Under the pieces are notes generated by a model. It saw only the letters and a list, made by a program, of their open reading frames with translations. It was not told where the DNA came from and ran no database searches. Both the position numbers and the translations under genes were made by a program. Below are positions 5,620 to 5,869 of a stretch of DNA of 7,363 nucleotides, one piece after another. This DNA is from a virus (lineage: Duplodnaviria; Heunggongvirae; Uroviricota; Caudoviricetes). The DNA lies in the IMG/VR virus record IMGVR_UViG_2529292836_000012, positions 1-7,363 of that record; one strand, written 5' to 3'. Every line of letters starts with the position of its first letter. Positions within the stretch are counted from its first letter, which is position 1.

Positions 5620-5696
5620 TGGCGCGTTGTACTGGATTCGAACCAGTGACCGATTGCTTAGAAGGCAATTGCTCTGTCCGGCTGAGCTAACAACGC
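5620..5696 (-). tRNA. tRNA-Arg (anticodon UCU)
   Basis: Manual cloverleaf, 77 nt: acceptor GCGTTGT/ACAACGC, D-arm GCTC-AGCCGGACA-GAGC, anticodon loop CUUCUAA, T-loop TTCGAAT, encoded CCA. It is the third gene of an Ile-Arg-Arg cluster like the ileZ-argN-argO arrangement of lambdoid/Stx prophages. Confidence 0.88.
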
Positions 5697-5709
5697 AGGG
5701 TACAGATAA

Positions 5710-5786
5710 TGGACCGCCATCGAGGACTCGAACCCCGCGCAACCAGCTTCGAAGGCTGGCGCTCTATCCTGATGAGCTAATGGCGG
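5710..5786 (-). tRNA. tRNA-Arg (anticodon UCG by my reading)
   Basis: 77 nt: acceptor CCGCCAT/ATGGCGG (C1:G72), D-arm GCTC-ATCAGGATA-GAGC, anticodon stem CCAGC/GCTGG with loop CUUCGAA, T-arm CGGGG-TTCGAGT-CCTCG, encoded CCA. Confidence 0.8.
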
Positions 5787-5793
5787 TATGTGA

Positions 5794-5869
5794 TGGTGGC
5801 CCTTGCTGGATTTGAACCAGCGACCTGGCGATTATGAGTCGCTCGCTCTCACCACTGAGCTAAAGGGCC
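5794..5869 (-). tRNA. tRNA-Ile2 (anticodon CAU, lysidine-type, ileX-like)
   Basis: 76 nt: GGCCCTT-TA-GCTC-AGTGGTGA-GAGC…anticodon loop CUCAUAA…T-loop TTCAAAT…AAGGGCC-A-CCA. It is close to E. coli ileX as I recall it, and unlike elongator or initiator tRNA-Met. Confidence 0.85.

Follow-up and report, generated by a model that had tools for sequence, protein, structure and literature searches.

The ileZ-argN-argO tRNA cassette of a toxin-free lambdoid prophage of Escherichia coli and the rare codons that it matches

Tandem tRNA genes downstream of the antiterminator gene Q are a recurrent feature of lambdoid phages (PMC3636060), and the order Q, methylase, tRNA genes, stx and lysis genes is a published layout (PMC3491183 Fig. 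5). Phages SfI, Sf6, ST64T and P21 carry tRNA genes for Asn-GUU and/or Thr-UGU in this slot, after Q and before the lysis genes. For SfI, a codon bias for ACA matching its tRNA has been reported, and the role proposed is the one considered here (PMC3636060). In phages that convert their hosts to Shiga toxin (Stx) production, the slot holds the genes ileZ, argN and argO, names that we take from GenBank annotations and secondary papers. This cassette is already known: its name and annotation go back decades, and about half of complete E. coli genomes carry it. Here we analyse a copy carried on a stretch of 7,363 nucleotides from a tailed-phage record (IMGVR_UViG_2529292836_000012, positions 1 to 7,363; hereafter the window). 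Unlike the tRNA genes of SfI, Sf6, ST64T and P21, which encode other species and are not anchored on ileZ, the genes of the window are of the ileZ-argN-argO type. We think it likely that they form a self-contained cassette, pT-ileZ-argN-argO-terminator, within a lambdoid late unit, and that the extra tRNAs supplement the decoding of codons that are rare in the host and over-used by the phage.

To define the cluster, we searched the whole window with ARAGORN and with the Rfam tRNA covariance model, for which the gathering score is 29 bits. ARAGORN reported exactly three tRNA genes, all on the minus strand, with outer limits of 5620-5869 and a transcription order of CAU, UCG and UCU (Table 1). 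Extent, order and anticodons are thus those proposed in a first-pass annotation of this DNA, which gave no strand, and none of the genes was called a pseudogene. The Rfam model scored the CAU gene at 72.5 bits (E = 7.2e-15), the UCG gene at 56.0 bits (E = 2.6e-10) and the UCU gene at 70.1 bits (E = 3.5e-14). With E-values ranging from 7e-15 to 3e-10, the three matches are not due to chance. All 21 stem pairs of argN and of argO are standard, and ileZ has one non-standard pair, A27.C43, that is universal among ileZ copies. The minimum-energy fold of the single sequences was a cloverleaf for argN only; the folds of ileZ and argO were not used either way, and the covariance-model scores were taken as decisive. 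Judged by their paired stems, conserved T-loops and the purifying selection described below, the three are functional-type tRNA genes and none is a pseudogene.

Table 1. Features of the window around the tRNA cassette, with window coordinates and the basis of each assignment.
Feature	Coordinates	Strand	Basis
ileZ-type tRNA-Ile2, anticodon CAU, 3' CCA encoded	5794..5869	-	ARAGORN, Rfam, identity to named ileZ
argN-type tRNA-Arg, anticodon UCG, 3' CCA encoded, intact	5710..5786	-	ARAGORN, Rfam, identity to named argN
argO-type tRNA-Arg, anticodon UCU	5620..5696	-	ARAGORN, Rfam, identity to named argO
Promoter-like element pT, TTGCAG - 17 nt - TATTAT	5879..5907	-	Homology annotation, conservation
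Terminator-like hairpin + UUUUU (8 pairs, loop ACGG), closes tRNA cassette	5582..5606 (hairpin 5606-5587)	-	Scan
Cargo slot, 95 bp, one hairpin (5508-5482), no gene	5478..5572	-	BLAST breakpoints versus phiP27
Second terminator-like hairpin (GGGCUGCUGGUGGCCC + U6), just upstream of holin ribosome-binding site	5443..5468	-	Scan
phiP27-type lysis cassette	4390..5427	-	Pfam, PHROG, 91.8% identical to phiP27
Holin	5427-5035	-	Phage_holin_8/Phage_holin_3_7 set; PHROG holin
Second holin	5045-4770	-	Phage_holin_8/Phage_holin_3_7 set; PHROG holin
M15 endolysin	4767-4390	-	Pfam Peptidase_M15_4; PHROG endolysin
N6/N4 DNA methyltransferase, directly upstream of pT	5919..6968	-	Pfam N6_N4_Mtase E = 2.6e-44; PHROG
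Small winged-helix-like open reading frame, 65 amino acids, phiP27 L23 homologue	7115..7316	-	PHROG_331 E = 1e-37; weak Pfam TrmB

A 601-base query around the cluster retrieved 291 phage records, mostly of Stx2-converting phages, at about 91% identity. In Stx2a_WGPS8 (AP012540), which is of the 933W/Sp5 type, gene order and spacing are those of the window, and stx2A and stx2B follow the tRNA genes. The spacers of 7 and 13 nt also recur in an O157 non-Stx prophage. Confirming the match to ileZ-argN-argO made in the first-pass annotation, the window copies of ileZ and argO are identical to those of Stx2a_WGPS8 (76/76 and 77/77 positions), and argN agrees at 75/77. The differences in argN are A/G in the D-loop and C27 versus U27, either of which pairs with G43. 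The likeness to the Stx2 phages extends to the pT-like promoter, to the terminator hairpin after argO and to a place in the late region downstream of the Q gene. By contrast, homology ends about 47 nt past argO (window about 5573-5560), where the Stx2 phages continue into stx2A, and neither the Q family nor the lysis cassette of these phages is that of the window prophage. The window and phiP27 have a complete methyltransferase gene, of which only the 3' end survives in the Stx2 phages compared. In those phages (L002 and L003), the remnant upstream of pT is about 100-150 bp long and is annotated as a 153-bp 'DNA methylase' open reading frame (ORF; window 5971-6020). This suggests that most of an ancestral methylase gene was displaced by the Q-pR'-tR' module of the Stx2 phages.

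We compared the first gene, with its CAU anticodon, with the K-12 genes for tRNA-Ile2 and tRNA-Met. The window ileZ is 89.5% identical to K-12 ileX (68/76 positions) and 69% identical to metT/metU. Its acceptor stem, GGCCC.../...GGGCC, matches that of ileX at pairs 1-5, and the whole anticodon loop matches as well. In E. coli, the identity elements of TilS are pairs 4:69 and 5:68, as C4:G69 and C5:G68 (PMC11947777), and both are present in ileZ. Judged by the determinant rules for IleRS, MetRS and ArgRS in Table 1 of PMC9976931, ileZ has the bacterial IleRS determinants A73, C4-G69, U12-A23, C29-G41, A37 and A38, and lacks the MetRS determinants U4-A69 and A5-U68. It differs from ileX in having U6-A67 for C6-G67, in the A27.C43 mismatch and, slightly, at D-loop positions 20/21, which are UG in ileZ and UU in ileX. 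At the top of the anticodon stem, A27.C43 is the sole non-standard pair in 118/121 copies of ileZ; K-12 ileX has G27.U43 there. The alternative, an elongator tRNA-Met that would add to AUG rather than AUA decoding, corresponds to the 'Met' label given to this tRNA by ARAGORN, by at least one paper and by several GenBank records. Those labels derive from the anticodon alone, and they are contradicted by the Ile annotation of PGAP at the RefSeq locus, of the 933W-derived record and of the phiP27 record. Together with the closer identity to ileX, the retained TilS pairs and the missing MetRS determinants, this makes the Met reading very improbable. According to its sequence, the CAU tRNA is an ileX-type tRNA-Ile2, and host TilS is predicted to form lysidine at C34 and so to enable the reading of AUA.

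The other two genes have the features expected of Arg tRNAs. The main bacterial ArgRS determinants are A20, C35 and U36 or G36 (PMC9976931), and these are present in both argN (…AUCAGGAUA…, anticodon loop CUUCGAA) and argO (…AGCCGGACA…, CUUCUAA). The discriminator of argO is G73, which fits the A73/G73 rule for ArgRS. With A20, G73 and an anticodon loop all the same as in K-12 argU, argO is 72.7% identical to argU overall. In argN, the ends read CCGCCAU...AUGGCGG-U-CCA, which gives C1:G72 and discriminator U73 in addition to anticodon UCG, A20, C35 and G36; the UCG anticodon and the C1:G72 pair had both been read correctly in the first-pass annotation. U73 has no counterpart among the K-12 Arg isoacceptors fetched, and it is listed among the bacterial Arg determinants (PMC9976931 Table 1). 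The K-12 Arg tRNA genes fetched were ACG (four genes), CCG, UCU and CCU; UCG was not among them, in agreement with the earlier proposal that K-12 does not encode it. To our knowledge, these seven genes are the complete K-12 set. Thus argN differs from the ileX/ileY-like and argU-like members of the cassette in having no K-12 counterpart. In K-12, C1:G72 occurs in tRNA-Pro (proM) and in none of the Arg isoacceptors fetched. ProRS requires A73 and G35/G36. The idea that argN is a ProRS substrate, raised by its C1:G72 pair, was rejected, as argN has U73 and C35.

We then examined the signals that flank the three genes. The -10 hexamer of pT stops 9 nt short of ileZ. The element fell below the threshold of a generic sigma-70 scan, its -35 hexamer matching at 3/6 positions and both hexamers together at 8/12 by our own count. 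We therefore relied on conservation and on a published transcription start. At the homologous place, the 933W-derived record is annotated 'pT; putative tRNA promoter'. When seven diverse loci were aligned, homology began at the -35 hexamer despite unrelated upstream backbones. Among 47 distinct upstream sequences, the TTGC of the -35 hexamer was conserved at about 70-88% and the -10 hexamer at about 80-90%, versus 30-60% further upstream. In the homologous region of Sp5, a primary transcription start driving the tRNAs has been mapped (PMC7547250). That promoter, in a near-identical module, is active during lysogeny, and by analogy the same would hold at the window locus. Both pT and the terminator are intact in the window.

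At the other end, three terminator-like hairpins lie between argO and the holin start at 5427, namely 5606-5587, 5508-5482 and 5468-5453. Two had been proposed in the first-pass annotation, and these correspond to the two best candidates, 5606-5587 and 5468-5453, which are followed by clear U-runs. Hairpin 5606-5587 has a folding energy of -12.8 kcal/mol (z = -3.7). A possible rho-independent terminator is annotated at the homologous place after argO in the 933W-derived record, and the hairpin is kept, with loop and stem substitutions, in most variants of the cassette. Hairpin 5468-5453 is weak (-8.4 kcal/mol, z = -1.4). From its position inside the block common to phiP27-type lysis cassettes, which starts at 5477/5478, it is part of the lysis module.

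Upstream of the cassette is a module of Q-type antiterminator and methyltransferase genes, and downstream of it is a lysis module of the phiP27 type. The Q-related gene, the methyltransferase, the tRNA genes, the holins and the endolysin are all on one strand, that of the late genes, and the assignment of the cluster to the late operon is upheld. In overall architecture, the closest relative is the late region of phiP27 (NC_003356), with the order L23, methyltransferase L24, ileZ, argO, stx2eAB, L27, holin, holin, endolysin. The winged helix-turn-helix ORF, methyltransferase, tRNA genes, terminator, both holins and the M15 endolysin are collinear with the window. According to BLAST, window 7363..5573 is collinear with phiP27 at 90.6% identity and window 5477..4396 at 91.6%. 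The two blocks are separated by 1,649 bp in phiP27, comprising stx2eAB and L27, versus 95 bp in the window. Between argO and the holin, profile searches of the window found no ORF that matches a protein family. Pfam and PHROG searches of the window proteins found no toxin-family match, and hence neither stxA nor stxB, by which an Stx-converting phage is recognized. The earlier description of a cluster followed by lysis genes with no toxin or other cargo in between is therefore accurate. In other relatives, the slot contains stx2AB; TerB, DUF3927 and a SASA esterase; DUF3927 and IraM; or DUF3927 and a TolA-like protein.

The window also differs from phiP27. The phiP27 annotation names ileZ and argO only and leaves a 101-bp gap (2628-2728) where the window has an intact argN. 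By analogy with two relatives (L015 and L016), this gap in the annotation may be a decayed argN. The phiP27 terminase and packaging genes are of the P27 type, whereas those of the window prophage are of the lambda gpA/Nu1 type. The lysis cassette also occurs in an Stx2k phage and in an LT-IIb enterotoxin prophage. The latter, SerU-LTIIb (KU052038), has its methylase and holin modules in common with the window and carries Arg/Gly and Thr/Gly tRNA pairs. It also has a duplicated holin segment, and its toxin genes stand after the endolysin gene, not in the post-tRNA slot.

From end to end, the window shares 99.9% identity with the E. coli NCCP 13717 chromosome, and it is nearly identical to several enterotoxigenic E. 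coli strains. In NCCP 13717, the locus is a lambdoid prophage inserted beside potC, in which RefSeq/PGAP already annotates tRNA-Ile, tRNA-Arg and tRNA-Arg. Using annotated coordinates, we compared 50 genes of this prophage with 77 host core genes. A first host region, the selC genomic island, was discarded as background, and the waa cluster, of low G+C content, was kept apart from the core set. All five cognate codons were more frequent in the prophage than in the host core: per 1,000 codons, AUA occurred 8.1 versus 3.9 times, AGA 5.4 versus 1.5, AGG 5.1 versus 0.9, CGA 6.4 versus 3.0 and CGG 12.1 versus 5.4. Each difference was significant (p about 5e-6 or lower), so the rare-codon enrichment that the first-pass annotation had left to be checked is present.

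Within their synonymous families, AGG was enriched 5.1-fold, AGA 3.1-fold, AUA 2.75-fold, CGG 2.0-fold and CGA 1.85-fold. Ranked by over-representation among 59 synonymous codons, AGG, AGA and AUA were first, second and third, CGG seventh and CGA tenth (Mann-Whitney p = 1.2e-5). Ranks 5, 8 and 9 were taken by ACA, GGG and GGA, codons cognate to the Thr-UGU and Gly-UCC tRNAs of sister cassettes. In the same ranking, other host-rare codons, namely CUA, CCC, UUA and CUC, showed no enrichment in the prophage. With its specificity for cognate codons, the enrichment supports codon supplementation. In the late genes, CGG was enriched about 2.5-fold and CGA about 1.8-fold.

The cassette is widespread. 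Among 5,426 complete E. coli genomes, 3,061 have a match to the 250-base cluster, which is at least 80% covered in 2,578 and can be present in up to 13 copies in a single genome. In 63 genomes, the junction between the tRNA genes and this holin is exactly that of the window. A 31-nt ileZ anchor also occurs in Shigella flexneri, E. albertii, Serratia quinivorans, two Lelliottia species and at least 120 viral contigs. We classified the cassettes at 132 ileZ anchors. Ile, Arg(UCG), Arg(UCU) was found at 59 anchors, followed by Ile, Arg(UCU) at 28, Ile, Lys(UUU), Thr(UGU), Gly(UCC) at 15 and Ile, Arg(UCU), Thr, Gly at 12. Ile stood alone at six anchors and with Arg(UCG) at four, and eight had other arrangements. 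The window thus has the commonest of these arrangements and, for each gene, the allele seen most often. The sister cassettes built on the same ileZ (L014, L021, L027, L038, L046, L072, L100 and others) add Lys(UUU)-Thr(UGU)-Gly(UCC), Arg(UCU)-Thr-Gly or other sets, and every tRNA added in them has U34.

Conservation differed among the three genes. Nucleotide diversity (pi) was 0.004 for ileZ outside the anchor, 0.021 for argO and 0.066 for argN. The sequence of ileZ was identical in 110/134 copies and far more conserved than the adjoining spacers, and the commonest alleles of argO and argN accounted for 37/107 and 7/65 copies, respectively. All stems were paired in 94% of argO copies and in 67% of argN copies, and the one compensatory change in argO was CG to GC. 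In three relatives (L015, L016 and L017), argN has decayed, its anticodon arm carrying an insertion and its T-arm being damaged, and is called by neither ARAGORN nor PGAP. Beside it, ileZ is invariant in all three, and argO is intact in L015 and L016. From this comparison, ileZ and argO are under strong constraint and argN is weakly constrained. Because of its high diversity, unpaired stems and frequent decay, argN is the most dispensable member, although the window copy is intact.

Taken together, the arrangement, the codon match and the conservation fit the following account. In the lysogen, a promoter of its own would drive transcription of the cassette. Once the prophage is induced, Q-modified RNA polymerase would read through the cassette within the late transcript, such read-through being established for lambdoid late transcription. 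Host RNase P and 3' processing enzymes would free the tRNAs. Host TilS would convert C34 of ileZ to lysidine, whereupon the tRNA would be charged with Ile and read AUA, and ArgRS would charge argO for AGA/AGG and argN for CGA/CGG. The cell would then have more decoders for codons that are the rarest in E. coli yet over-used in the lambdoid gene pool, and phage genes and horizontally acquired host genes may be translated faster.

Several observations weigh against this account. The early genes, situated upstream and expressed ahead of late transcription, showed stronger enrichment than the late genes, and AUA was not enriched in the latter (odds ratio 1.09). Among 116 ileZ-anchored loci, the share of CGA plus CGG in Arg codons was 26.3% with argN and 26.4% without it (p = 0.91), and neither ACA nor GGA/GGG was more frequent where the Thr or Gly tRNAs were present. 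These 116 comparisons used flanks of a few kilobases with ORFs called mechanically on one strand in a mosaic gene pool, and other prophages of the same cell can supply tRNAs in trans. For argN in particular, diversity was three-fold that of argO, 33% of copies had stem mismatches, no compensatory double change was seen, and the gene was decayed or missing in about half of the cassettes. The suggestion that argN could matter for CGA/CGG codons in late genes fits the enrichment of these codons, yet it has to be toned down, argN being the least conserved and most frequently decayed member and usage being equal without it; the comparative data, if anything, weaken its special importance. Finally, expression, processing, modification and charging of the window trio are predicted, the transcription start being carried over from a homologous phage, and a role in the lytic cycle may be moot here, the prophage being apparently defective. 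That the tRNA set of each phage is tuned to its own genes was rejected, the content of the cassettes being independent of flanking codon usage. Because content does not track flanking usage, any benefit would act at the level of the shared gene pool or of the host.

Other explanations of the cassette were weighed against codon supplementation. It has been proposed for phage tRNAs generally that they replace host tRNAs cut or depleted by anticodon nucleases, such as tRNA-Arg-targeting enzymes of the colicin D type and PrrC- or PARIS-type systems that act on tRNA-Lys (PMC10264068). Such a counter-defence role, in place of rare-codon supply, would suit the fact that two of the three window tRNAs are Arg isoacceptors, the class that colicin D is listed as targeting, as well as the abnormal loop CCUUUAA, with C33, of the UUU-anticodon tRNA in sister cassettes and the independence of cassette content from flanking codon usage. 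However, the anticodon loop of argO is that of host argU and bears no signature of evasion, and the anticodons fit exactly the over-represented codons while non-cognate rare codons are unenriched. We consider counter-defence unlikely for this cassette. Slightly less likely, in our estimate, is that the block serves mainly as conserved homology for the swapping of flanking modules, tRNA function being secondary. The block is found behind three different Q families as well as a methyltransferase and ahead of at least five downstream contents, and its homology has sharp borders, at the -35 hexamer and about 47 nt past argO, as expected of a recombination anchor. Yet homology alone would not keep cloverleaf pairing, identity elements, CCA ends and a promoter/terminator pair, nor does it match the far greater conservation of ileZ relative to the surrounding spacers; moreover, an anchor role is compatible with functional tRNAs and does not exclude them.

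We rate marginally lower again the possibility of a relic, the whole cassette, or argN at the least, being silent and without present function here. The prophage looks defective because an IS66 element lies in the gene of the terminase large subunit and both cro and rusA are frameshifted, and on this evidence it is probably so. Moreover, argN has decayed in many relatives, as under relaxed constraint, and its loss has left no trace in codon usage. Against a relic stand the window genes themselves, which are all the commonest intact alleles with stem pairs reported as standard, and the intact pT and terminator. As the homologous promoter is active in lysogeny, expression needs no inducible phage, and this would make the cassette useful to the host. 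Overall, supplementation of host-rare codons is the explanation that we favour.

The remainder of the prophage is organized as follows. From the integrase, the order leads through DUF968, the frameshifted rusA, the DUF1133 protein, the 65-amino-acid ORF and the DNA methyltransferase to the three tRNA genes, and then to the two holins, the M15 peptidase, small ORFs, the small and large terminase subunits, and head and tail genes. The DUF1133 protein is encoded just outside the window, at the position of Q in relatives. It matches Pfam Phage_antitermQ (PF06530) at 27.9 bits against a cut-off of 26, and its match to the solved Q21 structure is marginal (E = 0.006 over 29 residues). For the Q-like assignment, the Pfam match was preferred over the weak structure match. 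Across loci, the cassette follows three antiterminator families: DUF1133/PF06530, PF06323 and PF03589 (L001 19193-19735, L013 3101-3790 and L015 1536-2357). At the loci with a PF03589-type antiterminator, a terminator hairpin abuts the -35 hexamer of pT. Within the window, the 65-amino-acid ORF is the upstream end of the same-strand transcription unit. At its stop codon is a terminator-like hairpin on the minus strand, 7132-7115 (GCCUUCCGCAGUGAAGGC + UUUUU), which sits between the Q-like gene and the methyltransferase. This hairpin is a candidate tR'-type terminator that would place the stretch from methylase through tRNAs to lysis genes under antitermination control.

Downstream of the endolysin, on the minus strand, are a 37-amino-acid hydrophobic ORF (4257-4144) and an ORF of 51-60 amino acids (4142/4115-3960) whose lipoprotein-like signal ends in LLVGC. 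The only matches of either are to PHROGs of unknown function, and the position of the two (3960-4257) suggests a spanin-like lysis function. Homology to phiP27 stops near 3500, and the packaging modules differ, being of the P27 type in phiP27 versus the lambda gpA type in the window. Other profile matches in the window were DUF1441, which is a terminase small subunit in PHROG, and gpA terminase. Between a 130-amino-acid hypothetical gene and the Nu1-like terminase small-subunit gene, about 580 bp (2813-3392) hold no convincing ORF and are a plausible place for the cos site. The IS66-family element near the 3' end of the terminase large-subunit gene, at window 1-215 (L001 27149-29906), is ISCro1. 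On the minus strand, its tnpA begins near window 179, and the last piece of the terminase is annotated separately beyond the element.

These results bear on how such loci are read. The window illustrates why tRNA callers that rely on the anticodon alone mislabel ileZ as Met, and the toxin-free state of what is elsewhere a Shiga toxin locus is useful for judging whether a prophage is toxin-converting. The survey also yielded, as modest by-products, a match between codons and tRNAs that is specific to cognate codons, the invariance of this match from phage to phage and the recognition of argN as the labile member of the cassette. The backbone of the argN type (C1:G72, ...GGCGG-U-CCA) was seen with anticodons UCG, UCU and UUU in sister cassettes. 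The UUU form combines its abnormal loop, in which C33 replaces U33, with a T-stem mismatch and an Rfam score of 44 bits, and could be either an anticodon switch or a decaying gene. E. coli otherwise reads CGA only through an inefficient inosine-A wobble. It is conceivable, if doubtful, that argN is a working Watson-Crick reader of CGA and that carriage of the prophage would measurably change CGA/CGG decoding in the host; were argN to read CGA, such a change would follow because the promoter of the cassette is predicted to be active in lysogeny. With its three anticodons, the C1:G72 backbone would represent anticodon switching within a lineage of phage tRNAs.

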